Below, in pieces: positions 3,891 to 57,177 of a stretch of 64,000 bases of DNA. The DNA comes from an uncultured Acidobacteriota bacterium (lineage in GTDB: Bacteria > Actinomycetota > Acidimicrobiia > Spongiisociales > ZC4RG35), in assembly GCA_963789135.1 (NCBI GenBank), contig CAWBJJ010000008.1, positions 15,720 to 79,719 of the forward strand. Direction: 5' to 3'. The translations under genes and the position numbers were made by a program. Under the pieces are notes generated by a model, which worked only from the letters and a program-made list of their open reading frames with translations, ran no database searches and was not told the origin of the DNA. Every line of letters starts with the position of its first letter. Position 1 is the first letter of the stretch.

Positions 3891-4926
3891 CTAAGAGGCT
3901 GTTTCGGCGTAAAGGGAGCGATATGAGGCCCCGACCACGCTCCAGTCGTAGCGACTCGCGATCTCCCGGCCTACTGCAGTGAGCCTCGACCGCTCCGCAG
4001 AGTCACGAAGCAGCTCGACAAGGGCTCTGGCCAGGGCATCGCTGTCACCGACCGGGAAGAATCGGGCCGCGCCCTCCGCGACCGCGACGAACGCGTCCAG
4101 GTTCGAGGAGACGACCGCGGCCCCGGCGGCCATCGCCTCGAGGAGCACGATCCCGAACGACTCGCCGCCGAGTTGTGGGGCCACGAAAACAGACGACGAG
4201 TTGAGGACCTGCGCCTTCTTGCGGTCGTTCACCCTCCCCAGCCACTCGGCGCGGTCGTCGTCGCGGTGGGCACCCATGACGGTCAGGACCGCGTCTGGCA
4301 CCTTGGCGACCACGTCGGCCCAGGCGGTGAGCAGCACCTCGAGGCCCTTGCGCGGCTCGTCGCGCCCAAGAAACGACACCCGGTACCGATCCCGCTCGAC
4401 GTCGACGCGCATCGCCTCCACATCGAGGCCGTTGGGGATGATCCGGGCTTCGAGCCGGGACGGAAGGGGCGACGCCGCGGTCTGGCTGACTGCGGTCACG
4501 GCGGCGCAATTGCCCATCACCTTGGTCAACAGCCCCCCACCCAGTCGATAGGCGAGCCTGGCTGCAGAGCCGGGGGCAGCATGGAATGTCGCCACGACCG
4601 GTGGCCCCGAGTGATTGGCAAAGAGCGACACCAGGGGCATCAGGGGCTCGTGAACGTGGAGGACGTCGAGCTCGCCGGCCACCTCGCGAAGGCGGGATCG
4701 CGATCTGGGGTCGATCGAGATCGGGACCTTGGAGCCGTTCCCGGGAATGGAGACACTCCCACCGAGGTCGATGCCGTCCACGCCTTCCGGCAGGCCCGGG
4801 GCCGAGCACCATGGGGTGATCTCCCTGCCCGCTCAAGTATCGGGCGAGTCCCAGGACCTGGGACTGGACGCCGCCCGGCACGGAGAGGTCATAGGGGCTG
4901 ACCAGCCCGATGCGCATCCCGCTCAT
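3891..4926 (-). pseudogene. pimA: phosphatidylinositol alpha-mannosyltransferase PimA (GT4), interrupted by a single-base frameshift
   Basis: N-terminus MSGMRIGLVSPYDLSVPGGVQSQVLGLARYL in frame of 4926; remainder (…LHVHEPL…GGESFGIVLLEAMAAG…) in frame of 3891..4781; shift maps to GGCCCCGGGCC run near 4792-4805; one extra G restores ...MVLGPGLPEGVDGIDLGG. Confidence 0.7.
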
Positions 4927-5798
4927 TTCCGGTCAGAGGGCCAGTTGGGCTGGACGAGGTGCCATTGCCGCGGAGCCTCGGCGATCAACTTCTCGAGGCG
5001 GTAGGCCAGCTCCTGGGTCATCGCCTGGACCTTTTCGGAGCGGGTCCCGGACTCCGGGATCGGTATTGGGGGCGTGATCACCACCCGGTGCCCCTGCCCC
5101 TCGAAATACGAGCCGACAGGGAGCAATGGAGCGCCGCTCCTGATCGCCAGCGTTGCCGGCCCCGGCGGGAGGGTGGTCCGCTCCCCGAAGAACTCCACTT
5201 CGACGCCACGACGCTTGAGATCACGGTCGGAGAGAAGGGCCACTGCCTTGTTCTCCTCCAGCGCCGTCTCCAGCTTGCGCATGACCTCGGTGCTCCCGGT
5301 GGCGAGCACGATCTCGATCCCGAACGCGGCCCGCATCTCGGTGAACCAGTTGGTGATCAGCTCGTTGGACAGGCGTTCGGCTACAGCGACCACCGGGGCT
5401 CCGGCTGTGACCGAAACCGGCGCAGCCGCCTCCCAATTCCCCATGTGTGGCAACGCAAAGATCATCCCCTTGCCCCTGTCGCGGGCGCCGGTGATCTCCT
5501 CCAGCCCGTCCACGGTGGTATTGCGCCGGATTGCGGCCACCCGGTCGGGGCGGGCCCAGAAGACCTCCGCCCAATAGCGCCCGTAGGACTCCATGACCGA
5601 GCGGGCGGCGGCCGCGGTGTCAGCGCCCTCCCCGAGCACCCGGCCCATGTGACGCTGCGTCATCTGACGGCGACCGGAGGCGAACGTGTGCCAGACCCGA
5701 CCGAAGGCCCTTCCCAATGCCAGCGCCACCGATTGGGGGAGCAGGCCGACCAGCCCCACGCCGGCCCGGAGGGCCAGATATCCCAGGAAGTCCTTCAC
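4923..5798 (-). CDS. phosphatidylinositol mannoside acyltransferase (LpxL/HtrB-family lysophospholipid acyltransferase)
   Basis: 291 aa lipid A biosynthesis acyltransferase fold; position between pgsA1 and pimA conserved in actinobacteria; GTG start overlaps pgsA stop by 1 nt. Confidence 0.8.
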   Translation of the reverse strand: MKDFLGYLALRAGVGLVGLLPQSVALALGRAFGRVWHTFASGRRQMTQRHMGRVLGEGADTAAAARSVMESYGRYWAEVFWARPDRVAAIRRNTTVDGLEEITGARDRGKGMIFALPHMGNWEAAAPVSVTAGAPVVAVAERLSNELITNWFTEMRAAFGIEIVLATGSTEVMRKLETALEENKAVALLSDRDLKRRGVEVEFFGERTTLPPGPATLAIRSGAPLLPVGSYFEGQGHRVVITPPIPIPESGTRSEKVQAMTQELAYRLEKLIAEAPRQWHLVQPNWPSDRK

Positions 5799-6447: not shown

Positions 6448-8499
6448 TTGGAACCCGAGAAAGTTCGGAATGTCGCGCTGGTCGGCCACGGCGGAAGCGG
6501 TAAGACCACCCTCGCCGAGGCGCTCCTCTTCATCGGTGGCGCCACCACCAGACGCGGCTCAGTGGAACAGGGCACGACCGTTTTCGACCACGAGCCCGAG
6601 GAGATCGAGCGAACGATCTCGCTCGGGCTGGCGGTGGCCTCCCTCGAGTGGCAGGGCCACACCATCAATCTCATCGACACACCCGGATCCAGCGACTTCT
6701 CGGGTGATGCCAGGGCCACGCTCCGCGCCGCTGACCTCGCCCTATTCGTGGTCTCCGGCGTCGACGGGATCGAGGTCCAGACCGAGCAGTTGTGGAGGAT
6801 CGCAGGCGAGGAGTCGATCCCCCGCGCAGTTGTGGTCACCAAGCTCGACCGCGACCGATCTTCCTTCGAGAGGACTCTCGACCAGCTTCGTCAGGCCTTC
6901 GGCAAGGCGATTGCCCCGATTCAGGTCCCGATCGGGGCCGAGGATGGCCTATCTGGCGTGGTGCGGGTCGCCAGCGAGCGCGCCTACACCTATTCCGGCG
7001 ACGGCAAGGCCGGAACCGAGATCCCGCTCCCGGCGGAGGTCGAAGACCGGGTACACGCCGCGCACACCGCGCTCGTAGAGACAGTTGTCGAGACCGACGA
7101 CGCGATGATGGAGGCGTATTTCGAGGGCACCGAGCCCTCCCGGGAGGACATCGTGGCGACGGTGCACCGCGGGATCCTCGACGGGACCCTGCACCCGGTG
7201 ATCGTCACCTCGGCAGAGAAGCTGATCGGCATCGACCTCCTCGCCGAATTCATCGTCGACTACGGCCCCAACCCCCTGGAGCGGCCGATCCCGCGGCTCT
7301 CGTCGGGGGACAGCTTCGCCCCCGCCGTCGATGGGCCTGTGCTCGCATATGTCTTCAAGACCGTGTCCGACCCATTCGTGGGCAGGATCTCGATGTTCCG
7401 CATCTTCTCGGGGACGATCAAGGCCGATCAGGAGCTCGAGTTGGCCCGAGGGGGAAAGGTCCGGCTCCACAACCTGTTCCTGCTCCAGGGCAAGGACCAT
7501 CACGATGCGGCCGACCTCCCCGCCGGTGGGATCGGCGCGGTGGCCAAGGTGGAGAACGTGATGGTTGGCGACACGATGCGATCGCATGGCCTCAACGCCA
7601 CCGTCGAACCGGTCACCTATCCCAAGCCGGTGGCCGAGGTGGCGATTACACCGGTCTCTCATCACGACGAGGAAAAGCTGTCGACCGCCCTGCACCGAAT
7701 CGAAGAGGAAGACCCCACCCTGCGCATCGAAAGGCGGCCCGAGACCGGGGAGACGATCCTCGCCGGGCTCGGCGACAGCCACCTCGACGTGACTCTGGCC
7801 CGCATCCACCGCAAGTTCGGGGTCGAGGTCGCCTCGTCGCTGCCGGTGATCCCCTATCGGGAGACGATCACAACGTCGGGTGAGGCCGAGGGCAAGCACA
7901 AGAAGCAGAGCGGCGGCCGGGGCCAGTTCGGGGTGGCTTCGGTCAAGTTCGCCCCGTTGCCCAGAGGGTCCGGCTACGAGTACATCGATTCGATCAAGGG
8001 TGGCTCGATTCCCCGCCAGTTCATCCCGGCCGTGGACAAGGGCATCCAGGAGTCGCTGCGTCGGGGGATCCTGGCCGGTTACCCGGTGATCGACATCTCG
8101 GCCGAGGTCTACGACGGCAAGTTCCACTCGGTCGACTCCGACGAGATGTCGTTCCGAATGGCTGGCATCCAGGCGGTCAAGGCCGCCGCGATGAAACTGC
8201 GCCCAATCCTCCTCGAGCCCGTGATGAGGGTGACGGTCACGGTCCCCGAGGAGCATCTCGGCGACGTGATGGGTGACATCAACTCCAAGCGGGGCCGGGT
8301 GCTGGGCATGGAGGGCGAGGGAAACCTCAGATCGGTGGTCGCCGAGGTTCCTATGGCCGAGATCCAGCAGTACGCGGCCGAACTGCGGTCTTTGACCTCA
8401 GGACGGGGTAACTTCGAAGTCGAATTCGATCACTACGCAGAAGTGCCCCACAATGAGGCGCAGAATGTGATCGCCGCCGCTCAGTCGGCCGAAACGTAA
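6448..8499 (+). CDS. elongation factor G-like protein (EF-G2 paralog)
   Basis: 683 aa; G domain VALVGHGGSGKTTLAEALL...DTPGSSDF...TKLD; EF-G domains II-V; not adjacent to rpsL/rpsG/tuf. Confidence 0.85.
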   Translation: MEPEKVRNVALVGHGGSGKTTLAEALLFIGGATTRRGSVEQGTTVFDHEPEEIERTISLGLAVASLEWQGHTINLIDTPGSSDFSGDARATLRAADLALFVVSGVDGIEVQTEQLWRIAGEESIPRAVVVTKLDRDRSSFERTLDQLRQAFGKAIAPIQVPIGAEDGLSGVVRVASERAYTYSGDGKAGTEIPLPAEVEDRVHAAHTALVETVVETDDAMMEAYFEGTEPSREDIVATVHRGILDGTLHPVIVTSAEKLIGIDLLAEFIVDYGPNPLERPIPRLSSGDSFAPAVDGPVLAYVFKTVSDPFVGRISMFRIFSGTIKADQELELARGGKVRLHNLFLLQGKDHHDAADLPAGGIGAVAKVENVMVGDTMRSHGLNATVEPVTYPKPVAEVAITPVSHHDEEKLSTALHRIEEEDPTLRIERRPETGETILAGLGDSHLDVTLARIHRKFGVEVASSLPVIPYRETITTSGEAEGKHKKQSGGRGQFGVASVKFAPLPRGSGYEYIDSIKGGSIPRQFIPAVDKGIQESLRRGILAGYPVIDISAEVYDGKFHSVDSDEMSFRMAGIQAVKAAAMKLRPILLEPVMRVTVTVPEEHLGDVMGDINSKRGRVLGMEGEGNLRSVVAEVPMAEIQQYAAELRSLTSGRGNFEVEFDHYAEVPHNEAQNVIAAAQSAET

Positions 8500-8512
8500 G
8501 CGAGGCCGGGTC

Positions 8513-9796
8513 ATGGGCGAGGTAACAGTCAGGTACGGGGACAAGGAGATCACGCTCCCCACGATCACCGGCACCTTCGGGGACTCGGCAGTCGACATCT
8601 CCAAACTGCGCGCCGAGCTGGGGATCGCGACCATTGACAGCGGCTTCGCCAACACCGCCGAGGGCTCCTCCGGAGTGAGTTTCGTCGGTGGCGAAGAGGG
8701 CGTCCTGTCGTATCGGGGCTATCCGATCGAGCAACTGGCGGAGAAGGCCACCTTCATGGAGGTCTCCTACCTGCTCCAGTACGGCGAGCTCCCCACCAAG
8801 GATCAGTACGAGGAGTACGTCGAGTCCATCACCCGCCACACCCTGCTTCGGGAGGACATGAAGTACCTGTTCGAGGCTTTCCCCCACTCGGCGCACCCGA
8901 TGCAGATCCTGGCCGCGGGGACGTCCGCCCTGGCCAGCTACTACCCGGACGCCCTCGACCCGACGGACGAGGCGTCGGTGGACATCAGCGCCCGGCGCCT
9001 TGTCGCCAAGACCCCGACCATGATCGCCTGGTCATACAAGTACCGGGTGCACCAGCCCTACATCTACCCGGACAACGACCTCGACTACGCCTCCAGCTTC
9101 CTCAAGATGATGTTCTCGGTGCCGGCCGAGGAATACAACCCCGATCCCGTGGTCGCCAAAGTCCTCAACCTGCTTCTCATCCTCCACGCCGATCATGGTC
9201 AGAACTGCTCGACCTCGGCGGTCCGTTTGGTCGGGTCGAGTCAGGCCAACATGTTCAGCTCAGTCGCGGCTGGGATTCATGCGCTCTCCGGGCCACTGCA
9301 TGGTGGCGCCAACGAGGAGGTGCTCAACATGCTGGAGACGATCGTGGCCGACGGCGGAGACGTCTCCAAGTACGTGGCCCGGGCCAAGGACCGGAACGAC
9401 CCGTTCCGGCTGATGGGTTTCGGGCATCGGGTGTACAAGAATTTCGACCCACGGGCCCGGATCATCAAGCAGGCGAGCGACGACGTGCTGGACGCTCTTG
9501 GGGTGCAGGACCCCGCGCTCGAGGTCGCCATGGAGTTGGAGTCCCTGGCCCGGTCCGACGATTACTTCATCTCACGCAAGCTCTACCCGAACGTGGACTT
9601 CTACTCCGGGATCATCTACCGGGCAATCGGCTTCCCCAAGGACACCTTCACGGTTCTGTTCGCGTTGGGACGGCTCCCGGGATGGATCGCACAATGGCGG
9701 GAGCTGATGGCAAACCCCAAAACCCGGATCTTCAGGCCGCGCCAGCTGTATGTCGGTCCCGAGGTCCGGGACTTCGTCGAGATGCAAGACCGGTAG
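8513..9796 (+). CDS. gltA: citrate synthase
   Basis: 427 aa; ...LILHADHGQNCSTSAVRLVGSSQANMF...GFGHRVYKNFDPRA citrate synthase active-site motifs. Confidence 0.9.
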   Translation: MGEVTVRYGDKEITLPTITGTFGDSAVDISKLRAELGIATIDSGFANTAEGSSGVSFVGGEEGVLSYRGYPIEQLAEKATFMEVSYLLQYGELPTKDQYEEYVESITRHTLLREDMKYLFEAFPHSAHPMQILAAGTSALASYYPDALDPTDEASVDISARRLVAKTPTMIAWSYKYRVHQPYIYPDNDLDYASSFLKMMFSVPAEEYNPDPVVAKVLNLLLILHADHGQNCSTSAVRLVGSSQANMFSSVAAGIHALSGPLHGGANEEVLNMLETIVADGGDVSKYVARAKDRNDPFRLMGFGHRVYKNFDPRARIIKQASDDVLDALGVQDPALEVAMELESLARSDDYFISRKLYPNVDFYSGIIYRAIGFPKDTFTVLFALGRLPGWIAQWRELMANPKTRIFRPRQLYVGPEVRDFVEMQDR

Positions 9797-10288
9797 CTAA
9801 AGCCCGGGCACCGCTTCCACGTACGGCTGCTCGGCCACCGCACCGGTGACGGCGTCGACGACGACCAGGGCGCGCTGATCCGGAGGCTCGCTGGCGGAGT
9901 AGAGGACCACACTCCACCGGGGCACCGAGCGGATGCCTTTGAAGGTCACAGCCGCCGACGCGTGACCGACCGGAAAGTCGACCGCCGATCCGGCGATGCT
10001 CAAAGCCGCGTGCTCGTCGACGTTCAAAGGCCAGGATGAGGCGAACTGCCAGATGGAGAGTGCGACGAAGCCGATGGCAGGGATCCAGCCCCCGTCGATC
10101 AGGAGCAAGGAAAGGGCGGCACCGACGAGGTACACCCAACCTGAGATGCGGCGCCGGGTGGGGGACGGAAAGCGGTAAGGGCCAACCTGATTGGAGTCGA
10201 GCTCGTCCTCGATGGCGACCGAGTCGGCCAGGTCGCGCTCGATGAAGATCCCCTCCCGGTCGACGCGCCGGGGGTCTGGCTCGCTCAT
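9797..10288 (-). CDS. hypothetical membrane protein
   Basis: 163 aa, two predicted TM helices; ATGA overlap with thrS stop suggests co-transcription. Confidence 0.5.
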   Translation of the reverse strand: MSEPDPRRVDREGIFIERDLADSVAIEDELDSNQVGPYRFPSPTRRRISGWVYLVGAALSLLLIDGGWIPAIGFVALSIWQFASSWPLNVDEHAALSIAGSAVDFPVGHASAAVTFKGIRSVPRWSVVLYSASEPPDQRALVVVDAVTGAVAEQPYVEAVPGL

Positions 10289-12219
10289 TTCGCCGGCCGG
10301 GCCGCCAGATCGACGAGCCGGTTGGTGGCCTCGATGACGTCGACCCCACGAGCGTCCCGCTCCTCCCCGTAGAGCCGCAGGCCGACAGTCGAATCCTGGA
10401 TGTCCTGATCGCCGACGACCACCACCGCCGGGTGCTTCTGGCTGAGCGCACGGCGGATCTTCTCGCCAACCGTCTCCTCGCTCTCATCGATTTCGACGCG
10501 GAGGCCGGCATCTGTCATCCGGGCCCCCACCGACAGGGCGTACTCGAGATGACGGTCTGCCACCGGGATCACCGACACCTGGACCGGCGCCAGCCATGCC
10601 GGGAATGCGCCGGCGTAATGCTCGACGAGCACGCCCATGAACCGCTCCAGCGAGCCGGCCTTGGCACAGTGGATCATGTACGGGCGCTCTGAAGCGTTGC
10701 CCGAGGCGGTGTACTCCAGATCGAACCGCTCGGGCAGGGTGAAGTCGAGCTGGATCGTCGAGAGCTGCCAGCGGCGCCCGATGGCGTCCTTGACGTGCAA
10801 GTCGATCTTGGGCCCATAGAACGCCCCTTCGCCCTCCGCCACCCGGTAGGCGACTCCTCGGGCCTTCAGGGAGTCCTCCAGAGCCTTCTGGCTGAACTCC
10901 CAGCGTGACTGCTCTCCCACCGACTTCTCGGGCTGGGTGCTGAGGTCGGCGTCGAACTCGGTGAACCCGAAGTCGCGGAGCCAGGTGAGGACGAAATCGA
11001 GGTGGAGGTCGAGCTCGGACGCGAGTTGGCCCTCGGTGCAGAACGTGTGCGAGTCGTCCTGGGTGAAGCCCCTGGCCCGCAACAGGCCGTGGACGACGCC
11101 TGACTTCTCGTACCGATAGACGCTGCCCAGCTCGGAGAGCCGGATCGGGAGATCGCGATAGGAGCGTCCCCGGCTCTTGTAGATGAGGACGTGAAATGGG
11201 CAGTTCATCGGCTTCACCCGGTACTCATGACCGTGGTCCAGCTCCATGCCCGGGTACATGTTCTCGGCGTAGTAGTCGAGGTGGCCCGAGGTGTGCCACA
11301 GGTCGGCTTTGGCGAGATGAGGGGTGAAGACGAAGTCGAAACCGAACCGCTCATGGAGGGCACGGCTGTGGTCTTCGATCGTCTTGCGGAGCATCCCACC
11401 TTTGGGATGCCAGATCACCAACCCCGATCCGAGGTCGGAGGGAAAGCTGAAGAGGTCGAGGTCGGGCCCGAGGCGGCGATGATCGCGCTTCTCGGCCTCC
11501 TCGATGCGTGCCAGATGCTCTTCCAGCTGGGCAGGGGTCGGCCAGGCCGTCCCGTAGATCCGCTGCAGCTGGTCACGGCTCTCGTCTCCCCGCCAGTAGG
11601 CACCGGAGCTACGCAGGAGCCTGACGGCGCGGATCTTCCCCGTGCTCGGCAGGTGAGGTCCCCTACAGAGGTCGACGAAGTCGAGATTTCGATAGACCGT
11701 CACGTCGTCGCCCCCCGCCACCTGGTCGGGATCGACGCTCTCGATTATCTCCCTCTTGAAGGGATGGCTTGCGAACAGGTCGAGGGCCTGCTCACGATTC
11801 ATCGCTTCTCGAACGAATGGCTGGTCGGCGGCGATGATCTCGCGCATCCGGGCCTCGATCTGCTCCAGGTCCTCGGGAGTGAACGGGCGGTCGACTTTGA
11901 AGTCGTAGTAGAAGCCGTCTTCGATGGCGGGACCGATGGCGAACGTGGAGCCATCGAACAAGCCGAGAACGGCCTGGGCCAGGACGTGGGCAGACGAGTG
12001 GCGGAGGACGTCGAGCCCTTCGGGGGAATCGAGGGTGATCACCGCGAATTCACCGTCGTCTTCGATGGGACGGGCCAAATCGATCAATTGCCCATTGAGT
12101 TTTGCCGCCACCGCGGCACGCGCCAGCCCGGGGCCGATCGAGGCGGCGACCTCGCTCGCGGTCACCCCTTCGGGGTGCTCCACGGCCTTCCCATCCGGAT
12201 AATGAAGCTCTACTGGCAC
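10285..12219 (-). CDS. thrS: threonine--tRNA ligase
   Basis: TGS domain, class II aaRS motifs, anticodon-binding domain; listed ORF begins with TTG at 12294 but GTG at 12217-12219 (VPVELHYPDGKAVE) fits ThrS N-terminus. Confidence 0.9.
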   Translation of the reverse strand: MPVELHYPDGKAVEHPEGVTASEVAASIGPGLARAAVAAKLNGQLIDLARPIEDDGEFAVITLDSPEGLDVLRHSSAHVLAQAVLGLFDGSTFAIGPAIEDGFYYDFKVDRPFTPEDLEQIEARMREIIAADQPFVREAMNREQALDLFASHPFKREIIESVDPDQVAGGDDVTVYRNLDFVDLCRGPHLPSTGKIRAVRLLRSSGAYWRGDESRDQLQRIYGTAWPTPAQLEEHLARIEEAEKRDHRRLGPDLDLFSFPSDLGSGLVIWHPKGGMLRKTIEDHSRALHERFGFDFVFTPHLAKADLWHTSGHLDYYAENMYPGMELDHGHEYRVKPMNCPFHVLIYKSRGRSYRDLPIRLSELGSVYRYEKSGVVHGLLRARGFTQDDSHTFCTEGQLASELDLHLDFVLTWLRDFGFTEFDADLSTQPEKSVGEQSRWEFSQKALEDSLKARGVAYRVAEGEGAFYGPKIDLHVKDAIGRRWQLSTIQLDFTLPERFDLEYTASGNASERPYMIHCAKAGSLERFMGVLVEHYAGAFPAWLAPVQVSVIPVADRHLEYALSVGARMTDAGLRVEIDESEETVGEKIRRALSQKHPAVVVVGDQDIQDSTVGLRLYGEERDARGVDVIEATNRLVDLAARPAK

Positions 12220-12310
12220 AAGGATTATCTCGCTAGCCTGACCCGGGGCAGAGGCTAACTGCCTGTCGGAGCAGTCTGATCGGTCGCAGAGCAACGAGGG
12301 GTTTCAGGGT

Positions 12311-13141
12311 ATGGATGCACGAGAGCTGGTCACGAGCCTCAACCTGAATGGGACCGTCCGAGAGCTTTCGTCCGGAGCCAACAAGCTGTTTCGGCTCCTC
12401 GAGACCGAGAACGCGAGCACGATCGTCAAGGTTTACCCGGTCGCATCCCGGGAGCGTCGTGAGCGCCACGCCCTCGAAGCCCTGAGCGCGGCGCCCTCGG
12501 TGCCCCGCATCCTCGGCCATGGAGTCGCGGGCGAGCAGGCCTGGCTCCAGATGACCGACGGTGGCCATTGGAATCTCTCCAGCCTCCCCAAGAACATCGA
12601 TGCCGTGCAGGCATCCGGTGTCGCTTTGCGTGCCATCCACACTTCTGGAGCCCAGATCACGAACCTGGCTGCCGGGATCGACGCCGATTACGTGCTCAGC
12701 CACTATCGGTCGACGATCGAGCGGCTGGGCCGCTACCGCCGTCGCTTCGGCATGGAGCAGGTAGTGCTCGACAAGGCGCTCGAGATGGAGCCACCACTGG
12801 CCACGACACCGGTGCCGGCGCATACCAAGCCCATGCTCTCCAAGTTCGTCATCGACGAGGAGGGCAATGTGACCATCGTCGACTGGGAGTGGGCAACGCT
12901 GGCCCCTTCGGAGTGGGACCTGACCCTCACGGTCTGGCAACTCGCCCGCAGCATCGGGGAGGACGCGGCTGCAGCCTTCCGTACCGGCTACGGGGCGGAA
13001 TTGCCCGAGAGCCGCTACCGCCCCTGGGTCGCCTATCACTCGGCAATGATGATGCTCGAGGCTGCCGAGGTGCGAGAGGGCAGGCTGGGAAGCCTGCAGT
13101 ACCTGGTTGACGACCTCACCGAGGCCGTCATCGGCACCTGA
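12311..13141 (+). CDS. aminoglycoside phosphotransferase (APH) family / protein-kinase-like fold protein
   Basis: ...VTIVDWEWATLAPSEWDLTLTVW... APH-type catalytic loop. Confidence 0.7.
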   Translation: MDARELVTSLNLNGTVRELSSGANKLFRLLETENASTIVKVYPVASRERRERHALEALSAAPSVPRILGHGVAGEQAWLQMTDGGHWNLSSLPKNIDAVQASGVALRAIHTSGAQITNLAAGIDADYVLSHYRSTIERLGRYRRRFGMEQVVLDKALEMEPPLATTPVPAHTKPMLSKFVIDEEGNVTIVDWEWATLAPSEWDLTLTVWQLARSIGEDAAAAFRTGYGAELPESRYRPWVAYHSAMMMLEAAEVREGRLGSLQYLVDDLTEAVIGT

Positions 13142-13210
13142 TCCCAAATCCGCGAAATCTGTCGCTACCCGACTTAGCCTCTCATTCGCTGAGGCAAGGA
13201 GGACGGACAG

Positions 13211-13420
13211 ATGTTCGAAGTATTGGTCGCGGCCACCGCAACCACGGGTCTGTTCGCTCTTGCAAAGGGGATAAGGGGTAACCACCAATACCGGATCGAT
13301 CCACTATTGGTGATGACTCCACGGGACGAGCGGGGCGACGATCTGCCATGCCCATGGTGTTATGGGCCGACGAAGGAGGAGGACCCACGCTGCCCAGGCT
13401 GCGGAACTTCCTTCGGGTGA
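13211..13420 (+). CDS. small zinc-ribbon protein
   Basis: 69 aa with CPWC...CPGC pair; strong SD AAGGAGG 7 nt upstream of ATG. Confidence 0.4.
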   Translation: MFEVLVAATATTGLFALAKGIRGNHQYRIDPLLVMTPRDERGDDLPCPWCYGPTKEEDPRCPGCGTSFG

Positions 13421-13472
13421 GCCACTCAAGGCAAGGTACCTAAAAGGCCGATCAACATCCTATGGTGGCCTC

Positions 13473-14451: not shown

Positions 14452-14512
14452 ATCGGTTGCGTTATCGACTGATCCCTCTACTTTCTAACCACACCCGATA
14501 GGAGAGCCTCTA

Positions 14513-20076: not shown

Positions 20077-20588
20077 GTTTTCGCCTCCTCAGGCGTTTCG
20101 ACAATGTGCCAATGGTGGCAGGAATACCGCCGCTGAGGAAAAGCGGTAGAGGAGAAAGAAACCTTCGAGTTTCTCCGGGGGTTTGTTCAGTCTGAGACTC
20201 GAAGGCGCTTTCGGAGTGTCAGAGGAAACCGTCGGTTGACTGCCCGGCCAAGCAAGCGACTGGTACACGATGAGCAGCTCGCCGTCGATCGCCTCGACCT
20301 TTAGGTGTGGGTCGACGTGACATCGGTCCCACACAGTTCCGAACGCAATCCAAGGTTTCGGCGTCCGCTAAAGGTCGCGAAACATTGCGAGTGGACCGGA
20401 GCCCCCGCGGGGTTGGGCGACAGTGGTGACTGTCAGTCAGGAGCTCGCGATCCATTGCGAGCGAGCCCTGGGTAGGTGCCGTCCCGCCTCGACCCAACCT
20501 ACACACCGTCGCGAACAGCCATTTCGAGTGTGTGTACTGCGAAAGCGTCGACGACCTTGCTTCGGGGTTCTTTGGGTAGATTCCCTCG

Positions 20589-20963: not shown

Positions 20964-21033
20964 GCTCGGAGATGATGTAGAAGCCGAAGTCGTGTGGTAC
21001 AAGACCAGCCAGAAACCTGAGAAACCGCCGAAC

Positions 21034-21676: not shown

Positions 21677-21691
21677 GTGTTCCCTCCTCAG

Positions 21692-37697: not shown

Positions 37698-39251
<1,554 letters not shown>

Positions 39252-49987: not shown

Positions 49988-51562
49988 TCAGTGGCGAGCG
50001 GCCTTGTGACGCCCGTACTCCTCGCGGATCGCCTTGATCGTGATCCCCTCGTTGGCCTGGTAGGTCGCCGACGGGTCATCGAGCCGGCGCATCTTGGCGT
50101 CCCCGGCGTGGTGCACCGCCATCAGCTGCCATGCCTGGTTGAAGACAGGGCTTCCCGAGCTGCCGCCCTCGGTCGGGGCGGTGTAATGCACCCGAAAGCT
50201 CTCCGCGTCATAGGCGAGGAGGTCGTTGCCCCGAATTGAGAACTTGAGCCCTCCCCCGGCCGGGTGGCCGATCACATAGACGTACGCCCCTTCGGTGACC
50301 GGCTGGGGGACCTGGGCGACCTCTATAGGCTGGGTGATGGCCGCCTCGGGCCCCGGGAAGCTGAGGAACGTGACGTCGCAGGTCTCGGGCGGCGAACTCC
50401 AGACGCACTCCATCCCCGTGAGCACGAGATCGGCCCCGTCGACCGACTTGGTCACATCGAAAACGGCCTGGGCCTCGCCAGGGAGCAACTTGCCCACTCC
50501 GGGCTCGGGGCTGCAGACGTGGGCATTGGTGATGAGGATCGGCGACTCCCCGAGCTCGGGATCGAGCAAGGAGCCGCGGACCAGGAAGCCGGTCCCCCAG
50601 GGCTCACCGGAAGCGTCGGTGATCTTGGCCACCGACTCGGCGCACTGCAGCCCTCTCAGCAGGTGGTTGTAGCCCACAGGCAGTGCGGTCCCGAAGATCT
50701 TCTCCAACTGGCCCGGCGAAGTGGGCAACTCGACCTGCGCTGCCCCTCCCAGCTGAAGCTGGCTGTCGGCCATGGCCACCAGGATCGGGTGATGGGGCTC
50801 GAGCTCCCAGATGTCGACCAACTGGCGACGGAGGCTCCGCATCTCGAACGAGGTGACACTGCGACTGGTCGAGAGCTGTTCGGCCGCCGCCACCGCTTCC
50901 TTCTCGGCACCCTCGTCACCGAGAGCGACCAGCGCTTCGATCTCGGTGCTCCGGTCCCACACCGAGCGCAGTTCGGGGTCCTTGTCGCGGGCCAGGCCCA
51001 GGACCTCTCTGGTCAAGGTTGTTGTGTCGACCGCGTCCGACAGTTCGATGCCGTCGCGCTTCGCCCGGCAGGTCAATGCGAGGAGGTTCACGCCATGCCA
51101 GGCGGGGTCGGTGCCACCCTCGTAGCCGGCGCGATAAGCATCGATAGCGCCTACCAAGTCCTCGGAACGGCCCCCGTCGACGAAACGCTCCTTTCGGAGC
51201 CGGCCCATCAGCCCGAGCACCTCGCCCTTCGCCGTGTCGTCGTCGATCGACAGCAAGGACTCGGCGAGCGCCAGGTCGGCGGCGTGAAACGCCCCGATCT
51301 CGATCAACGCCTGGCAATAGCGGCGGCGGGCACCGGCGCCGACCGCCCCCACCGCCAGTGCGGCCTCCCCGACGTCGATGACGTGGTTGAACTCACGCCT
51401 CTTCTCGAGCAAGGCCATGACCTCACCAGCATCTTCCGGGGTGACCGATCCTTCCCACACCTTGGCCCGGACGTCGTCGACCGCGGCCGAGAGGTCTTCG
51501 GGCTTGCCCGAATCGAGGCTGGCTTGAAGCCGCTCACCCAGCGGCGAGTCGAGAAGACCCAT
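49988..51562 (-). CDS. TPR-like helical N-domain fused to trypsin-like (S1) serine peptidase
   Basis: C-terminal ...GTGFLVRG...ITNAHV (His)...GADLVL (Asp)...GGSSGSPVF (Ser); ~290-aa alpha-helical repeat N-terminus. Confidence 0.7.
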   Translation of the reverse strand: MGLLDSPLGERLQASLDSGKPEDLSAAVDDVRAKVWEGSVTPEDAGEVMALLEKRREFNHVIDVGEAALAVGAVGAGARRRYCQALIEIGAFHAADLALAESLLSIDDDTAKGEVLGLMGRLRKERFVDGGRSEDLVGAIDAYRAGYEGGTDPAWHGVNLLALTCRAKRDGIELSDAVDTTTLTREVLGLARDKDPELRSVWDRSTEIEALVALGDEGAEKEAVAAAEQLSTSRSVTSFEMRSLRRQLVDIWELEPHHPILVAMADSQLQLGGAAQVELPTSPGQLEKIFGTALPVGYNHLLRGLQCAESVAKITDASGEPWGTGFLVRGSLLDPELGESPILITNAHVCSPEPGVGKLLPGEAQAVFDVTKSVDGADLVLTGMECVWSSPPETCDVTFLSFPGPEAAITQPIEVAQVPQPVTEGAYVYVIGHPAGGGLKFSIRGNDLLAYDAESFRVHYTAPTEGGSSGSPVFNQAWQLMAVHHAGDAKMRRLDDPSATYQANEGITIKAIREEYGRHKAARH

Positions 51563-51567
51563 GCGTG

Positions 51568-52536
51568 TCAGATACCGAGGCCCTGGCGGACCGCTGCCTG
51601 CACCACCTGCTGCCGGAAGTACTTCCCGGACGGATGCCGGAATGCACCTCCGTTCGACACCACCTCGTCGACCACCTCAGGCTGCCGCTTGCGCTTGTAG
51701 TCGTTGGCGAGAAGCGGGTCGGCGGCGCATACCGGGTCGAGGCGGTCGACCACATTGACCCAGCGCGGAAGCTCGTCGGGAAAGCCGTCGTCCTTCGACC
51801 ATTCCGGCTTCAGGTTGTGCTGGACCTCGGACAGCCCCAGTGGTGTGCCGAGCGTGATCAGCATGTCGACCTTCTTGGTGTCGGCCACGCGCTTCAGGCA
51901 GTCATAGGCGATCACCGAACCAAGACTGTGGGCGACCACGACGTGGGGGCTGCCGTCGATCTCGCCGAGGTCGCCGACGAAGCGCTTCCGGACCTCGTCG
52001 CGGACCTTGAAATTGGCCCCGGCTCGCGGTGAGTGGCTGGAGTTGAACAGGTAGTGGTGGACGTCACGGAGCAGCACCCGCATCATCGGCCTCTTGATGA
52101 ACCAGGGAAGCGGCACCGCCTCCAGTGCCGAGGCCGCGGCCACGCGGGCTTGGGCCGCGACCGGAGGGTCTTGACCGCCGGCCTCGACAGGATGGGTCGC
52201 CTGCTCGATGTCGTCGGGGTGGTCGAGGTCGAGGTCCGAGATCATCGACTCGATGAAGGCCTTCTCCTCACCGCTGGCCGAGTCGATGTAGGACTCGTCG
52301 ACCTCAGTCAGGGCACCGGGCTCGACTCCCTCGTATTCGATCGACTCCTGAGCGCCAGGGGCATCGGTGGCCGCCGCGTACATCACATCCGCCCAATACA
52401 CCATGGATGAAGTCACCCCGTAGACGTCGAGATCGACACCGTCACCACCGTCGGCGAGATCCCGCTTCCAGGAGCTGAGCAAGCGAGCCGGCGAAGGCTG
52501 GTTCATGATGCCGTGAACGAAGGTGATGTGGCCCAT
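51568..52536 (-). CDS. alpha/beta-hydrolase fold esterase/lipase (DUF676/PGAP1-like)
   Basis: ITFVHGIMN (oxyanion HG), VVVAHSLGS (GxSxG nucleophile elbow), ITLGTPLG; long acidic insert; GAGGAGG SD. Confidence 0.65.
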   Translation of the reverse strand: MGHITFVHGIMNQPSPARLLSSWKRDLADGGDGVDLDVYGVTSSMVYWADVMYAAATDAPGAQESIEYEGVEPGALTEVDESYIDSASGEEKAFIESMISDLDLDHPDDIEQATHPVEAGGQDPPVAAQARVAAASALEAVPLPWFIKRPMMRVLLRDVHHYLFNSSHSPRAGANFKVRDEVRKRFVGDLGEIDGSPHVVVAHSLGSVIAYDCLKRVADTKKVDMLITLGTPLGLSEVQHNLKPEWSKDDGFPDELPRWVNVVDRLDPVCAADPLLANDYKRKRQPEVVDEVVSNGGAFRHPSGKYFRQQVVQAAVRQGLGI

Positions 52537-52551
52537 CGAGTCCCTCCTCTT

Positions 52552-53526
52552 CTACGTCGAGCCTAGGTCGACGCCCTCGTACTGATACCCGCTGTTGTCA
52601 CCTTCGACGTCCATCTCGATGGTCCCGGTCGGGATCCGGGCACATCCCCCGTCACTGTCGCCGCCCGCCGAGAAGTTCTCGATCACATAGGCGACCAGTG
52701 GTGTCTCATCGGGGCTCGGGCTGCCCCCGGTCGAGCTGAACCCGTCCGGAAAGTCGTCAGAGCAGTCGACGGTCACCGGGGAAGAGAGTTGAGGCCCGGG
52801 AACGTCGATCTGGACGGAGCTTGCGTCTGCCGTCCCATCGATCCTCGCCCCCTCGGTCTCACTGAGCTCGAACAACAACGCGAAGCTGTGGCGGGCTCCC
52901 TGGTATCCGAGGCTGGTGGGCACCGGCGGCTGGATCCATCGGTCCGGCGGGTAGCCCTGGCGCTCGGCTTCAGCGGTGACGAAGTACTCGTGATTCTGCA
53001 CGCCCAACTCGACGGCGAACCCCTCATCGCCCCCGGCGACGCATGTCGCACTGCCGCCCACCGGGATCGGGTCGAGGGAGCACACGTCTTCGCCGAGATC
53101 CGAACCGTCGAACCCTGAGATCTCCAGGCCGACCACGGTCCCGTTGAGCTGGTCGAGGTTCTCGACGGTGAACTGGACCCAGTAGCGGGGGCTTCCGAGC
53201 TGGGGAACGGACTCCGCCGAGAACCCCGCCGGGAGGAATGGGCCCCCGGCCGACTCACCTACCGCCACAGAGATGAGCACCGACCCCGCGCCTCCTGTGA
53301 AGTCGAACACCGCGGCAGCGATCACCGGGGGCAGGGTTGCCGGGGGCGAGGAGTCGGTGGTGTTCGTCGCCTCCGACGTCGTGGTCTCCTGGCCGGCAGT
53401 GGTCGTCGTCGCCGGATCGACGCTGGTGGTGGTGCTTGCTCCGGTTGTGGTGCTCGCTTCACTCTCGCCGGCGCAGGCGGCGAGTGCCAGGCACAGGGCC
53501 AGGGTCGATGCAATGGTGCGCTTCAT
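52552..53526 (-). CDS. secreted lipoprotein with Thr-rich linker and beta-rich domain
   Basis: MKRTIASTLALCLALAACAG lipobox (LAAC); TTTGASTTTSVDPATTTTAGQETTTSEATNTT linker; GAGGAG SD. Confidence 0.6.
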   Translation of the reverse strand: MKRTIASTLALCLALAACAGESEASTTTGASTTTSVDPATTTTAGQETTTSEATNTTDSSPPATLPPVIAAAVFDFTGGAGSVLISVAVGESAGGPFLPAGFSAESVPQLGSPRYWVQFTVENLDQLNGTVVGLEISGFDGSDLGEDVCSLDPIPVGGSATCVAGGDEGFAVELGVQNHEYFVTAEAERQGYPPDRWIQPPVPTSLGYQGARHSFALLFELSETEGARIDGTADASSVQIDVPGPQLSSPVTVDCSDDFPDGFSSTGGSPSPDETPLVAYVIENFSAGGDSDGGCARIPTGTIEMDVEGDNSGYQYEGVDLGST

Positions 53527-53575
53527 CCCGTACTCCTCACCCCGGAGTTGGGGGGCCACCACCCTACGCGGTCAC

Positions 53576-55637
53576 TTACGGCGCAGGGCACACGACGGTG
53601 TCGATCGGGTCGCCGGGGAGGCTGTTCGCCTCCTCCAGATACGCGTCCGCGGTGTCGCTCAGTCCCAGACCGCACTCGTAGACGAAAGCCAGCGCCATGA
53701 AGAATTCGCGCTTGCTGTCGAGGTCCGGGGCGATCTCGGAGGCAGTCTCGAACTCGGCTATGGCAGCCTCGTTGTCCTCGTCGAGTAAGTGGACGGAGCC
53801 GAGGGTGGCGTGGGCGTCCGCGGCGACATCCAACAACCTGGGCTCGGACTCGATCACCGGCATCAGTGCATCGACAAGCGTCACGAACCTCTCGCCGCCG
53901 CTCGACACCATGGTTGTTCAGGCAGAGATTGATCCGTGCCATCTCGAGCCGCGATCTCTCCGGGAGAAACGAGAACTCGGGGGCCTCCATGAGGGCCACC
54001 TCGTCGAATCCGGCGATGGCGGCTTCGAGCCCTTCGACGTCCCCGGCGCCAGTTCCGCCGCAGGCCGCTCCCTTGGCGCGCTGAAATCCGACCTCCGCCA
54101 GTCCAAAGTGGGCCCGGGCGTAGTCGGGCTCCAGCTCGAGGGCTCGTTGGAAATACCCCTCGGCATCGTCGAGATCCTCCTGCAGGCCGCTCACGTTTCC
54201 CAGGAGATTGAAGACAACTTCCTTGCCATTGCTGTCGACCCTCGACCCGGGCCAGTCGATCGACGCTTGAACGAAGCGCTCCTCAGCCTGGTCGAAGTCA
54301 CCGAGCTGATAGAAGCTGAGCCCGATCGCGAGCTCGGTCAACGCCGTGATCTTGGGTCCCAGGCGCTGGGCGGCGATGCTCAGAGTCCCGGGGTCTGTGC
54401 TGAGAATGGTCTGGTCGTCCATTGCATAGGCGCCGGCGAGCTCCTTGGCGCCGGTCAGACCGCGGTCCGAGATGAAGAACTCGGTGGTGAGCAAGGGCGC
54501 GCCGTTCTCGGTGTCCAGGGTGCCGTAGACGACCACGTCGGCGGCGACTCTCGAGGCGAGCTCGGCCGCTTCCTGGGCCCGTTCCTCTGGGGTGTCCCCC
54601 GCCAGAGGCCCTACCTCGTCAGGACCGGCCACCGCCACCTCGACGTCGGTCTCTTCGGCCACCGCCTCGTCGATTTGGCGGTACAAGGTCTCGGAGACAC
54701 TCGAGGCCGACTCGCCAGTCGACGCGAACTCGGCAACCGCGATGTTGAAATCACCCCCGATTGGCCCCAGTGTCACCACGACGTTGGCTGTGGCCGCCGA
54801 CTCGGCCCCATCCTCGTCCCGAACGGTGAAGCCAAACGAGTCCGGTCCTCGATAACGGGATGGGCCGGTGTAGGAGATCAGGCCACCACCCAGATCGGCG
54901 ATGCTGCCGCCATGCGTCGACTCGTTGTCGACCGTGACCGACAACTCGCCGGAAGCGTCATCCTCGACCCATTCGAGAAGATCGATCTCGGTGGGAATGT
55001 CCCCGATCGCGGTCACCGCCTCCGGAGTGATGGATGGTGGCCGATTGCCCCGAACTACGAGCGCCACACCGAGCACCGCGATTATCAGGACTGCCGCGCC
55101 CAGCCAGGCCCACAGCGGGAACCCGTGCCATCGGCGACGCCAGCCTCCGATGTGGTCGATCAGGTTGTCGACGTCGTCGTCGAATCGATCCGGTCGCACC
55201 GTGACCGCCTGACGGCCAGGCAGGGTCTGCAGCGGCTCGGGCAGTTGGTCGGCGGTGGGCAGGTCGGCGTCTCCGACCAGGACCGGGATCACCTGAACCC
55301 GCCCCATCTCCAGCGCGATGGCGATCTCCCTACGCACCCAGTCTTCAGGGTTGTCGAGACGGCGCTTGCCCCCGGCGTCGGCGGCTAGCCAGTCGGGGCC
55401 GATGATCGCCAGCAGGACATCACTCCTGGCGAGTGCCTCATCCAGAGTGGTGGCGAAGTCCTGACCGGGAGGGATGGTCTCGTGATCAAGCCAGATCGCC
55501 TTGCTCGCGTAGTAATCGGTGAGCGCGGCATGAAGCCGGCCCGCATGTCCTCCCGCATCACTCCGGCGATAGCTGATGAAGATGTCCGGGCTGGCCAGAC
55601 CGCGTTTGATCGAGGCGATCAGTCCAATGCAGAGAAT
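53576..55637 (-). pseudogene. TIR domain - TM - cadherin/Ig-like - TPR repeat protein (one frameshift near C-terminus; no canonical start codon)
   Basis: TIR: SPDIFISYRRSDAGGHAGRLHAALTDYY...LLAIIGPDWLAADAGGKRRLDNPEDWVRREIAIALEMGRVQVIPVLV; TM FPLWAWLGAAVLIIAVLGVALVV; Ig-like LSVTVDNESTHGGSIADLGGGLISYTGP...DSFGFTVRDEDG...VVVTLGP; TPR ...YFQRALELEPDYARAHFGLAEVGF; C-terminal 111 aa continue in frame of 53576..53911 (shift ~53900-53912). Confidence 0.65.
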
Positions 55638-57177
55638 CTACCGCCCGGTCGCCGTCGGCTCCCCGACCGCCAGTTCGAGGCACGCTTTCACTGCGTCGTC
55701 TGCGCGCTCATCATCAGGCACCTCGATGATCGTCGGGCGACCGCCGGCCGAGAGCGAGCCCAGCGTGCCTTCGAGGAGCTCGTCGTCGGTCGTGGCGTCC
55801 ACCAGGAATACCGCTCTGTCGAGGGCGCCCTCTCCGGCCAGCATCTCGATCTCGACGAGGCATCCCTGGTTGTCCGGCCCGAAATCGCGCAGGTCCATGA
55901 GCACCGAATGGCTCATACGCAGCAGCTCGACGACCGCCAACCGCCAGGTGTCGTCGAAGCAGAAGAACTCTTCGACCCGATATCTCGCGTCCGGGTCCTG
56001 GCGCACGACGAGCGATTCGCGCCGCTGCTCGAGAGTGGCCGGCGAATCCACGAAGAGGCGGGGCAGGTCACCGCTGAGGAACGTGAGGAACTCGTCCGGC
56101 TCCACAGAAGCGACCGCGAGGTCCGGGCCACCGATCATCCGCACCGGGCCCAGGTAGCGCCATTGGGCGCTGATCCGGTCCAGGAGTCGCTGGGCGCCCC
56201 GTCGAGGAGAGAACACCCGGAGAACGAGCAGGGCTGCCGGCGCCGAGGGTTTCCGATGGACCACCCGGTAGAGGACCAGGGCCAGGGCGCCCATGGCGAT
56301 GAAGACCGCCATGCCGGCAGCGAAGGCCCAGCCGTCGGTTGGCCTGATGCCGGCCGAGGAGTCGATCGCGAAGACGAAGAACACCGACCCGAGCAGGAGC
56401 ATTTGGTCCGAGAACCCGCTGCCGCGGTACCAGGCGGCGAGAAGCCGGCCGACGAGTACCGCCAGGACCAGCGAGCCTACGAACCCGGCGGCGACACCGA
56501 ACAGGAGCAGATTGGCGTCGCCCCAGTCGATGATCGGGCCTGACGCTGTGATCAACAGGTAGATGGCCTGGGCCCCGGCGATCGCGGCCATCACCGTGCC
56601 GAGGACCAGGGGGCCAACACCCCGGAGGGGCCGCGTCAGGAAGGCGACGACCGCCAACGTCGGGATCAAACTCCACACCCACAGCTCGAACGGCAAGAAC
56701 GGGCCGCTTCCCGCGAACCAACCAGCCGCCATCAGCAAGAGGACGTATATCCCGATGGAGGCCAGCAACCAGCGCCGGGCCCCGCCGGTGACGATCCAGG
56801 TCCCGATCACCGCCGGCCAGGCATAGATCACCGTGAAGACCGTCACTCGGTAGATGGAGAGAGCGATGTCGTTCCAGGTGAGCAGGAGGATGGAAAAGCA
56901 GATGCCTGTGACCACCGCGACCGCGATCACGACCCCGACATTGACCCACACCCCGCGGGGCCTGGTGTCCTGCGGTGACCGCGGGCTTCGACAGGGGTAT
57001 AGGCGAAGTTTGCGAGGCGGCCGGGGCGGCATCGGCCGTTGCTCCACGCCGTTCCATGAGGCGCCGGATCGAGCTCCGGTAGCGACGGAGCAAGAGCCAT
57101 GTGATGGGCAGGGCGAGCACCGCGGCCACCAGGGCGAGGATGAGGGGGATCCCGCCCAGGAACGCCATATCGCTCAT
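55638..57177 (-). pseudogene. polytopic (~12 TM) membrane protein with ~190-aa cytoplasmic C-terminal domain, one frameshift
   Basis: ATG 57177 with GGAGG SD: MSDMAFLGGIPLILALVAAVLALPITWLLL... in one frame, continues ...VWVNVGVVIAVAVVTGICFSILLL... in frame of 57047 (shift ~56970-56990 in GGCCCCGCGGGG); ends at TAG 55638-55640 that is in frame with the downstream TIR domain. Confidence 0.55.

Follow-up and report, generated by a model that had tools for sequence, protein, structure and literature searches.

Single-base frame changes in nine genes of a soil Acidimicrobiia contig as probable consensus errors of long-read metagenome assembly

The window analysed here, a whole stretch of 64 kb from an Acidimicrobiia contig, contains nine genes in which the reading frame changes at least once, with 16 net frame changes in total, which corresponds to about 15% of its genes. 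The changes were found by a codon-usage Viterbi segmentation, Pfam scans of the separate frames and frameshift-aware protein-to-DNA alignment against intact orthologues. The preliminary description had counted about 14 single-base shifts in conserved genes, with no premature stops and a downstream frame that still reads as good protein, and this picture held, as the corrected reading frames of the shifted genes are free of internal stop codons and match their orthologues. The affected genes are the following.

3891 to 4926, minus strand: GT4 glycosyltransferase, pimA-like, with one net +1 change at about 4791-4800
13473 to 14451, plus strand: patatin-like phospholipase, with a single extra base at 13829, CACGC[T]GTCC
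21034 to 21416, minus strand: PLDc_N-SHOCT small membrane protein, with six frame changes in 380 nt; 126 aa when corrected
31401 to 32661, minus strand: cinA, with MoCF_biosynth, CinA_KH and CinA domains and an extra base at about 32138-32142, CCCA[C]GG
40785 to 42363, minus strand: S10-family serine carboxypeptidase-like protein, with an extra base at 41034, ACAC[C]ATCGG
42251 to 42821, minus strand: carboxymuconolactone decarboxylase (CMD) family protein, with an extra base at 42467, GCGT[C]TGG
42825 to 44174, minus strand: dihydrolipoamide acyltransferase (E2) of a BCKDH-type 2-oxoacid dehydrogenase operon, with three +1 changes at about 43922, 43681 and 43632
53576 to 55637, minus strand: TIR_2-Big_9-TPR protein, with one +1 change at about 53879, RREVRD[G]LVDALMPVIE
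55638 to 57177, minus strand: multi-pass membrane protein (described earlier as a 12-TM protein) with a soluble C-terminal domain and no Pfam match, with one +1 change at about 56946-56979

The glycosyltransferase gene changes frame after its first 44 codons, about 300 codons following in the new frame, and the Pfam Glyco_transf_4 match of the long fragment begins at model position 53. Its alignment with the intact 344-aa orthologue of L082 extends over 346 codons, with an identity of 82% and one single-base insertion, and in the DNA alignment the window has one extra base. The gene follows those of a CDP-alcohol phosphatidyltransferase and a lipid A-type acyltransferase in a conserved order, which fits a putative pimA-like role. 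It had been presented as pimA in a mycobacterial setting; the shift and the likely function stand, but not the setting, as the contig belongs to Acidimicrobiia. In the patatin gene, the matches to positions 1-112 and 127-188 of the Pfam Patatin model are in different frames. The gene is intact (325 aa) in L081, a JGI short-read contig with 95% nucleotide identity, and in L082 and L083 as well. Over 7.1 kb the window and L081 differ by 344 substitutions and two single-base gaps, of which one, the patatin site, is the only coding indel.

The PLDc_N-SHOCT gene, located in the window by its PLDc_N sequence pattern, had been credited with two shifts but has six. Four are +1 changes (21368, 21236, 21214 and 21058), and those at about 21312 and 21149 can each be read as -1 or as two +1. 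Frameshift-aware alignment to six homologues gave the same six sites, and the gene was also read in three frames. When corrected, it matches 125-126-aa proteins with PF13396 and PF09851 over 100% of its own length, with 77% identity to P0237. In cinA the frame of the N-terminal domain differs from that of the KH and CinA domains, the insertion falls at one common place against L003, L024 and L029, the DNA alignments agree with it, and no stop interrupts the merged translation. The S10 gene changes frame exactly at 41033-41035 in comparison with at least 15 relatives; it shows a one-base insertion against L001, L002, L009 and L010, and DNA alignment with eight relatives places that insertion in the window alone. 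The CMD gene has one such insertion against L001, L002 and L063, and in DNA alignments with both Nanopore and JGI relatives the extra base occurs only in the window. The corrected 189-aa CMD protein matches 80 JGI metagenome loci without a break.

The three shifts reported earlier for E2 were recovered as three single-base insertions against each of L003, L009 and L005. Together these displace the E3-binding domain and part of a PE-rich linker from the frame, which is then restored: Biotin_lipoyl and 2-oxoacid_dh share a frame, E3_binding lies in another, and in the three-frame reading the offset goes from 2 to 0, to 1 and back to 2. A 36-nt tandem repeat spans 43564-43680. The TIR protein has TIR_2, Big_9 and TPR matches in its main frame and further TPR matches in the frame of 53579-53917, so that its final 100 or so residues, TPR as well, are found in the next frame; the shift was also read from the three frames and from comparison with L001. 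In the membrane protein the first 75 or so codons are in another frame, and there is one inserted base against six homologues. Corrected to 512 aa, it matches homologues of 516-547 aa over 97-100% of its own length. Its product in the public record, P0123, is a 464-aa fragment with 86% coverage, and the frame error is thus present in the deposited record.

Several other candidate sites were rejected. A shift in 46227-47012, suggested by the Viterbi segmentation and comparison with L001, belongs to L001; the three-frame reading gives an intact 261-aa membrane protein in the window, and the L001 ORF used at 46.2-46.5 kb is partly a wrong-frame shadow ORF. A shift at about 52793, seen only against L001, is a +1 insertion in that genome, and the lipoprotein ORF of the window (52552-53562) is intact. 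Two shifts in the TIR gene relative to L001, at about 54486 and 54047, are also L001's own, and the window frame bears TPR Pfam matches there. The TIR insertion of the window and an independent one in L001 are 9 nt apart, which is unexpected for purely random errors. Events at 44163-44176, 45145-45164, 3840, 8515, 12304, 37697 and 39272 are gene-boundary artefacts of stop-to-stop ORF queries. For the Pro-rich membrane protein that had been mentioned as possibly shifted we found no frame change, and the candidate ORFs lacking Pfam matches are uninterrupted.

No relative whose sequence extends over any of the 16 sites is shifted there, and the comparison with related genomes that had been asked for shows intact versions throughout. 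The closest relatives have 84-95% nucleotide identity to the window, L081 being the one at 95%, and none is of the same strain, so that at any single site a very recent real mutation would be compatible with them. When JGI metagenomes were scanned with the corrected CMD protein for the S10/CMD/E2 cluster of the same species, only relatives of at most 88% amino acid identity were found.

The lesions are of one kind. Each is a single-base indel, and nonsense codons and larger deletions are absent. At least 14 of the 16 net changes are +1; the two net -1 changes are the ambiguous ones in PLDc_N-SHOCT. At five sites, all among the +1 changes, DNA alignment resolves a one-base insertion. The earlier link to homopolymers did not survive when the shift positions were checked against the runs of the window, since there is no excess over background: runs of at least four bases lie within 7 nt of 2 of the 16 sites, no better than chance against a background of 12.5%, and the window has 145 runs of 5-6 bases, which the 16 shifts leave untouched. 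Nor did the contexts of the shift sites hold any slippery motifs, heptamers or repeat tracts. Every shift being a single base with good protein downstream, one could think of programmed recoding, through ribosomal frameshifting or transcriptional slippage, or of phase variation. We consider this hardly credible, as the orthologues are unshifted in all relatives, slippery sites are lacking, and nine unrelated genes would have to share the mechanism, two of them with three or six successive events. Programmed frameshifting of the prfB and dnaX type is known in bacteria, and the likeness is limited to a single-base frame change within a functional gene; conservation in orthologues and a slippery site are both missing here, and many unrelated genes are involved.

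The shifted genes evolve under purifying selection before and after the shift, as do their intact neighbours. Their dN/dS is 0.10-0.17 against 0.04-0.23 in the neighbours, and where the parts upstream and downstream of a shift were compared the values were 0.18/0.16, 0.13/0.09, 0.15/0.10 and 0.07/0.17. The window has a coding density of about 93% (added up manually over the Viterbi segments), and the housekeeping genes recA, rny, miaA/B, thrS and ftsK have full-length Pfam coverage.

These results bear on whether the genes are genuine, recent pseudogenes, produced by a burst of single-base insertions under a mutator state or relaxed selection. The shifts do exist in the deposited sequence, several of the affected genes are accessory (patatin, CMD, TIR, 12-TM and PLDc_N-SHOCT), and dN/dS is blind to events younger than the split from relatives that are 84-95% identical. 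We nevertheless find such an origin very unlikely. Nonsense codons are absent from the 16 lesions, an outcome with a probability of about 0.03 if, as we assume, 20% of inactivating point lesions are nonsense, and 14 insertions among 16 is improbable (p about 0.002) even against equal numbers of insertions and deletions. Spontaneous indels in bacteria are deletion-biased. What decay should leave behind, a mixture of lesion types, relaxed constraint and a lowered coding density, is absent in all three respects, and there are no larger deletions. Among the broken genes is the pimA-like one in its conserved operon, while E2 with three shifts and the 380-nt gene with six otherwise have protein sequences typical of their families, and a like pattern occurs privately in other Nanopore MAGs and is absent from all 54 of the other assemblies from the same class. 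Reductive decay as in Mycobacterium leprae leaves many pseudogenes, and the window resembles it in that many conserved genes are interrupted. It differs in the absence of nonsense codons, large deletions and loss of constraint (dN/dS about 0.1), in its coding density, and in having free-living soil bacteria with intact copies as relatives.

A mixed case is also unlikely, in which most shifts are assembly errors and PLDc_N-SHOCT is a real decaying pseudogene in a strain-variable segment beside a tRNA cluster. It would account for six indels within 380 nt next to a 375-nt ORF (20589-20963) that is intact, and the segment 20184-21567 is missing from the closest relative and lower in GC, as expected of a dispensable islet. 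However, the corrected protein is full length and stop-free, shares 77-80% identity with its best homologue and keeps the conserved family motifs, and decay that had lasted long enough for six indels should also have brought many unconstrained substitutions. The indel density of 1.6% is that to be expected of near-raw Nanopore sequence.

Evidence on the role of technology comes from a census of 67 related loci, 13 from Microflora Danica (MFD) and 54 others, in which a private frameshift was counted when at least eight other loci supported it. In the MFD loci there are 28 private frameshifts in 169 kb of testable sequence, with 6 of the 13 loci affected, whereas the 54 others, loci from the same class with a technology inferred from contig names (k141_, NODE_), have no strongly supported private frameshift in 581 kb testable (binomial p 8e-19, Fisher p 2e-5). 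The MFD events, like those in the window, favour +1 (24 against 7 -1) and lie at non-homopolymer sites. By the same criterion the window has four private frameshifts in 21 kb testable, and its frameshift rate and signature match those of the MFD MAGs. The rate of 16 changes in 64 kb has no near counterpart among the 54 non-MFD loci. The occurrence of frameshifts therefore follows the sequencing and assembly pipeline, not phylogeny. The nearest relatives of the window are MFD MAGs made of Flye contigs, the closest being the genome of L001 and L082 at 84% nucleotide identity, which has private shifts of its own elsewhere (in genes for a kynureninase, a lipoprotein, a membrane protein and a TIR protein). 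From these relatives, and from its proteins, deposited at ENA and NCBI on a 125,785-bp contig, we infer that the window probably derives from an assembly of the Nanopore-only type.

The most rational explanation, which we hold to be very probable, is that the frameshifts are consensus errors of a long-read-only metagenome assembly of a soil Acidimicrobiia, most likely with Nanopore reads, Flye and Medaka, and not mutations of the organism. The artefact reading had already been preferred to pseudogenes in the preliminary description, and constraint, lesion type, intact relatives and the technology census all support it. The MFD long-read MAGs were assembled with Flye (--meta --nano-hq) and one round of Medaka, with Methods that describe no short-read polishing step, and their authors mention Nanopore-associated errors in MAGs of low coverage (PMC12313526). 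With R10.4 chemistry a coverage of about 40x is required for a near-finished consensus (PMC9262707). Errors would arise where reads are thin or the population is mixed, and this would explain why they cluster in PLDc_N-SHOCT, part of a 1.4-kb segment that varies between strains, and in the repetitive linker of E2. An account by low coverage alone needs a sharp local boundary at PLDc_N-SHOCT, since only some 70 nt separate this gene, broken six times, from the intact 124-aa ORF at 20589-20963.

The window shares with Nanopore-only MAGs (Flye and Medaka, e.g. MFD) the private single-base indels in conserved genes, about one per 4-6 kb, which occur in MAGs of that pipeline but are missing from the short-read assemblies of relatives, the insertion bias and the non-homopolymer context. 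The literature on such errors stresses homopolymers and low-GC archaea, whereas here we have non-homopolymer insertions in a genome of 65% GC. The textbook Nanopore error is a homopolymer deletion, unlike the pattern here. The classical homopolymer indels of 454, Ion Torrent and Nanopore R9.4.1 likewise give single-base frameshifts that truncate predicted proteins, but the window has no homopolymer excess, with 0 of 145 runs of 5-6 affected, and has insertions, not deletions.

The bases at the sites suggest how such insertions might come about. We compared the adjacent base pairs with the alleles of relatives at the four DNA-resolved sites for which several relatives were at hand (cinA, S10, CMD and patatin). 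At cinA, S10 and CMD the window has two neighbouring bases where each relative has just one of them, as synonymous alleles (AGG/CGG, ACA/ACC and TTG/CTG), while at the patatin site only one of the two bases occurs in relatives. We hypothesize that polishing put the two alleles of a SNP consecutively into the consensus; the support from the five DNA-resolved sites is suggestive, and we estimate p at roughly 0.02-0.2. Shifts are invariably set at codon boundaries by the frameshift-aware alignment, and its placements can therefore not test this idea. One may also imagine real insertions, with the Acidimicrobiia population and, independently, its relatives from the same survey having just come under an insertion-biased, non-homopolymer +1 process that inactivates genes, the source of which might be an error-prone polymerase or an intercalating agent. 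This we regard as highly improbable; a weaker version, that the sites are SNPs within the population which the polisher wrote as two bases, is more likely than real insertions. If it is true, strain polymorphism could be traced in Nanopore MAGs by using their frameshift positions as markers, and the errors would represent a fixable failure of polishing in mixed populations.

The consensus errors are a warning about data quality and not a piece of biology, and the value of the finding is practical. About 15% of the genes of the window are mis-called in the public record, for example as a 464-aa fragment of a protein of about 512 aa, and surveys of pangenomes, metabolism or defence systems would count the pimA-like gene, cinA, E2, TIR and patatin as missing, truncated or pseudogenes. 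The residual errors of such MAGs being mostly +1 and outside homopolymers, filters that are aware of homopolymers will miss them. Frameshift correction, guided by a reference or by short reads, is thus needed ahead of any analysis.

The window holds 16 net frame changes across nine genes (GT4, patatin, PLDc_N-SHOCT, cinA, S10, CMD, BCKDH-type E2, TIR-Big_9-TPR and 12-TM), and the corrected frames of these nine are free of in-frame stops, in agreement with the preliminary description, which had reported frameshifts in conserved genes without nonsense codons. Candidate in-gene frame switches were taken from a codon-usage Viterbi segmentation, by which about 93% of this densely coding window (65% GC) is in a coding frame, and were then put to three tests: a Pfam scan of each frame separately, tblastn with the ORFs of relatives, and a custom frameshift-aware protein-to-DNA alignment that pins every event and its direction. 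Relative to intact orthologues, 14 of the 16 changes are net +1 and two are net -1, and at five sites (patatin, cinA, S10, CMD and GT4) one extra base is directly visible in DNA alignments. Individual features are:

Patatin gene: extra base, CACGC[T]GTCC, from DNA alignment
PLDc_N-SHOCT gene: 21416-21034, minus strand, six frame changes, read by eye
cinA: extra base, CCCA[C]GG, from DNA alignment
S10 gene: extra base, ACAC[C]ATCGG, from DNA alignment
CMD gene: extra base, GCGT[C]TGG, from DNA alignment

According to Pfam, cinA has MoCF_biosynth in one frame and CinA_KH and CinA in another, the patatin gene has model positions 1-112 and 127-188 in separate frames, the GT4 ORF is without its N-terminus, and the TPR repeats of the TIR-Big_9-TPR ORF run on into another frame. 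With tblastn, 11 loci switch frame at about 32140 in cinA, at least 15 loci do so exactly at 41033-41035 in S10, and at least 11 at 42466-42468 in CMD. The corrected 12-TM protein spans 97-100% of its 516-547-aa homologues; the product in the public record (P0123) is a 464-aa fragment, and the shift is therefore already in the deposited sequence and not a later addition. A further shift had been thought possible in a Pro-rich membrane protein, but none was found, the ORFs at 46227-47012 and 52552-53562 being intact in the window; the shifts considered at these two places were rejected, as they belong to a relative, L001.

The events are clustered, with six within 380 nt and five within 2.9 kb (variance-to-mean ratio about 3 in 2-kb bins, calculated by hand). 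PLDc_N-SHOCT, which had been credited with two shifts, has six; the frameshift-aware alignment with six homologues gave the same sites as reading by eye; its indel density of 1.6% is near the raw-read level, and the corrected protein of 126 aa matches PLDc_N+SHOCT proteins of 125-126 aa end to end. The gene belongs to a stretch of 1.4 kb (20184-21567) that the closest relative lacks: there the alignment of L082, a locus of the same MAG as L001, stops at 20184 and restarts at 21567. This segment has a lower GC (about 0.60), adjoins a tRNA-Val/Cys/Gly cluster (21601-21870), contains an intact 124-aa ORF (20589-20963) besides the shifted gene, and looks like a small strain-variable islet. It is a misfit that the intact ORF is only about 70 nt from a gene broken six-fold. 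In E2, Biotin_lipoyl and 2-oxoacid_dh are in one frame and the intervening E3_binding in another (Pfam), 24 loci switch frame at about 43900-43950 (tblastn), and the frame path goes from offset 2 to 0, 1 and back to 2, that is, the three shifts first noticed are seen as three +1 steps. The Pro/Glu-rich linker between the E3-binding and catalytic domains is encoded by a 36-nt tandem repeat (43564-43680; 3.2 copies, 81% matches), and of the last two shifts one is at the edge of the repeat and one inside it.

That the shifts are genuine inactivating lesions has to be weighed against several observations. Measured against the L001/L082 genome (dS about 0.6), dN/dS of the shifted genes (GT4 0.17, patatin 0.11, S10 0.14, CMD 0.10) can be set beside 0.04 to 0.23 for intact neighbours, and constraint downstream of the shift equals that upstream; this rules out old pseudogenes, very recent ones lying outside its reach. 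The sixteen 1-nt indels are accompanied by neither nonsense codons nor larger deletions, and the core genes recA, rny, miaA, miaB, dapF, lexA, nrdR, ftsK, thrS, isocitrate lyase and malate synthase are full length by Pfam. If 20% of inactivating point lesions are assumed to be nonsense, the absence of any among 16 has p ~0.03, which argues against real inactivation. Indels in bacteria are deletion-biased, and here 14 of 16 are insertions (p ~0.002 against a 50:50 expectation). We consider a genuine burst of +1 mutations very improbable. Comparison with close relatives, suggested at the outset as a check, points the same way: a JGI metagenome contig, L081, is 95.1% identical at the nucleotide level over window 7357-14488, with 344 substitutions and two 1-nt gaps, one intergenic and the other the patatin shift, and its patatin gene is intact (325 aa), while the corrected CMD protein has a single unbroken match at 80 JGI metagenome loci. 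At window 13143, in the spacer just past an APH-family gene, GGG stands against GG in L081, which could be error or polymorphism alike.

Sequence matches place the host as a soil Acidimicrobiia bacterium, represented by MAGs only, and not a mycobacterium, because the E1-alpha protein (45152-46168, minus strand), searched against species-representative genomes, matches Acidimicrobiia-type MAGs throughout, with L001 (MFD00962.bin.2.113) on top at 93% aa identity, because L001 is colinear with the window at 84% DNA identity across 35180-55249, and because ThrRS has a 100% match (P0001) on a 125,785-bp contig deposited in NCBI and ENA, besides one of 99% on a JGI contig of 7.1 kb. The order CDP-alcohol phosphatidyltransferase, acyltransferase, GT4, pdxS, pdxT and yebC, with thrS close by, is a conserved actinobacterial arrangement, and the label pimA given earlier is therefore reasonable by synteny, but its mycobacterial setting does not hold. 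Several Microflora Danica (MFD) MAG records (L001, L002, L007, L063) are titled 'uncultured Acidobacteriota bacterium', and their closest relatives, including neighbours 80-93% identical, carry the Acidimicrobiia label; this is probably an inconsistency of taxonomy labels in the deposits.

A census took in the window and 67 related loci, every sequence of 9 kb or longer (68 in total), with a private frameshift defined as a frame change in one locus that is backed by ORFs of at least eight others. The 13 MFD loci had 28 in 169 testable kb, across six MAGs, against none in the 581 testable kb of the 54 other loci (binomial p 8e-19; Fisher p by locus 2e-5), whose contigs bear names typical of short-read assemblers (k141_, NODE_) and which include one chromosome-level MAG. 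With four in 21 testable kb the window is inside the MFD range, and it shares the MFD base-level signature (24 +1 against 7 -1, in non-homopolymer contexts). One MFD locus, L012, had up to 15 in the census and about 22 events in 21 kb, spread throughout. The MAG of L001 and L082 has private shifts of its own in different genes: kynureninase is split at L082 3615-4910 (177 + 243 aa, against 428 aa in the related locus L083), and L001 is shifted at about 1203, 1385, 2464 and 17236, in a lipoprotein, a membrane protein and the TIR protein. The MFD long-read MAGs are Nanopore-only, assembled with Flye --meta --nano-hq and one Medaka round, and in those with low coverage their authors observed Nanopore-associated errors (PMC12313526); the same group had earlier found that a near-finished R10.4 consensus requires roughly 40x coverage (PMC9262707).

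In the TIR gene, the window's insertion (53879, GAC[G]CTT) and an independent +1 G in the Nanopore MAG locus L001 (about 1385, GAA[G]GCG) are 9 nt apart, a proximity hinting at a systematic error that depends on context, perhaps on a methylation motif. Within 55337-55640, the TIR ORF opens straight after the 12-TM stop codon, and upstream of its TIR domain none of ATG, GTG and TTG occurs; a start at the earliest canonical codon (GTG, 55337) would truncate the domain. The ATC at 55610-55608 would, were it ATG, give MKRGLASPDIFISYRRSD, and may be either a rare start codon or the product of a substitution error. Together, 49988-55637 encodes a TPR-S + Trypsin_2 protease, an alpha/beta hydrolase, a lipoprotein and the TIR_2-Big_9-TPR protein, and is possibly a locus of the conflict or defence type; the PADLOC matches of the TIR domain are weak (SAVED-TIR and ThsB, E 3e-7 to 7e-6), and no known defence system was matched there. 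Elsewhere, the stretch 36410-40784 has an intact glyoxylate-shunt pair, isocitrate lyase (36410-37687) with malate synthase (37698-39422), adjoined by an intact divergent HTH_3 regulator of about 450-500 aa.

Because of the matching error signature, the ENA/NCBI provenance and the MFD MAGs being nearest, we infer that the shifts are most likely errors made at the consensus or polishing stage of a metagenome assembly built from long reads only. The preference for indel errors over pseudogenes thus stands, but not the homopolymer reason given for it, as a run of at least four within 7 nt occurs at just 2 of the 16 sites, against a background of 12.5%, and the 145 runs of 5-6 bases in the window are all unaffected. 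The clusters would fall at places with poor or mixed read support, for PLDc_N-SHOCT in a segment missing in the closest relative, beside the tRNA cluster and with raw-read-like indels, and for E2 in the repetitive linker. In cinA, S10 and CMD, where relatives have one or the other of two bases as synonymous alleles (AGG/CGG, ACA/ACC and TTG/CTG), the window carries both side by side, and the extra patatin base falls on the wobble position of an Ala codon. One possibility, no more than suggestive with so few sites, is that polishing put both alleles of a population SNP into the consensus. The frameshifts are not a biological feature, and the contig should be frameshift-corrected before any gene-content, pseudogene or defence-system calls are made.
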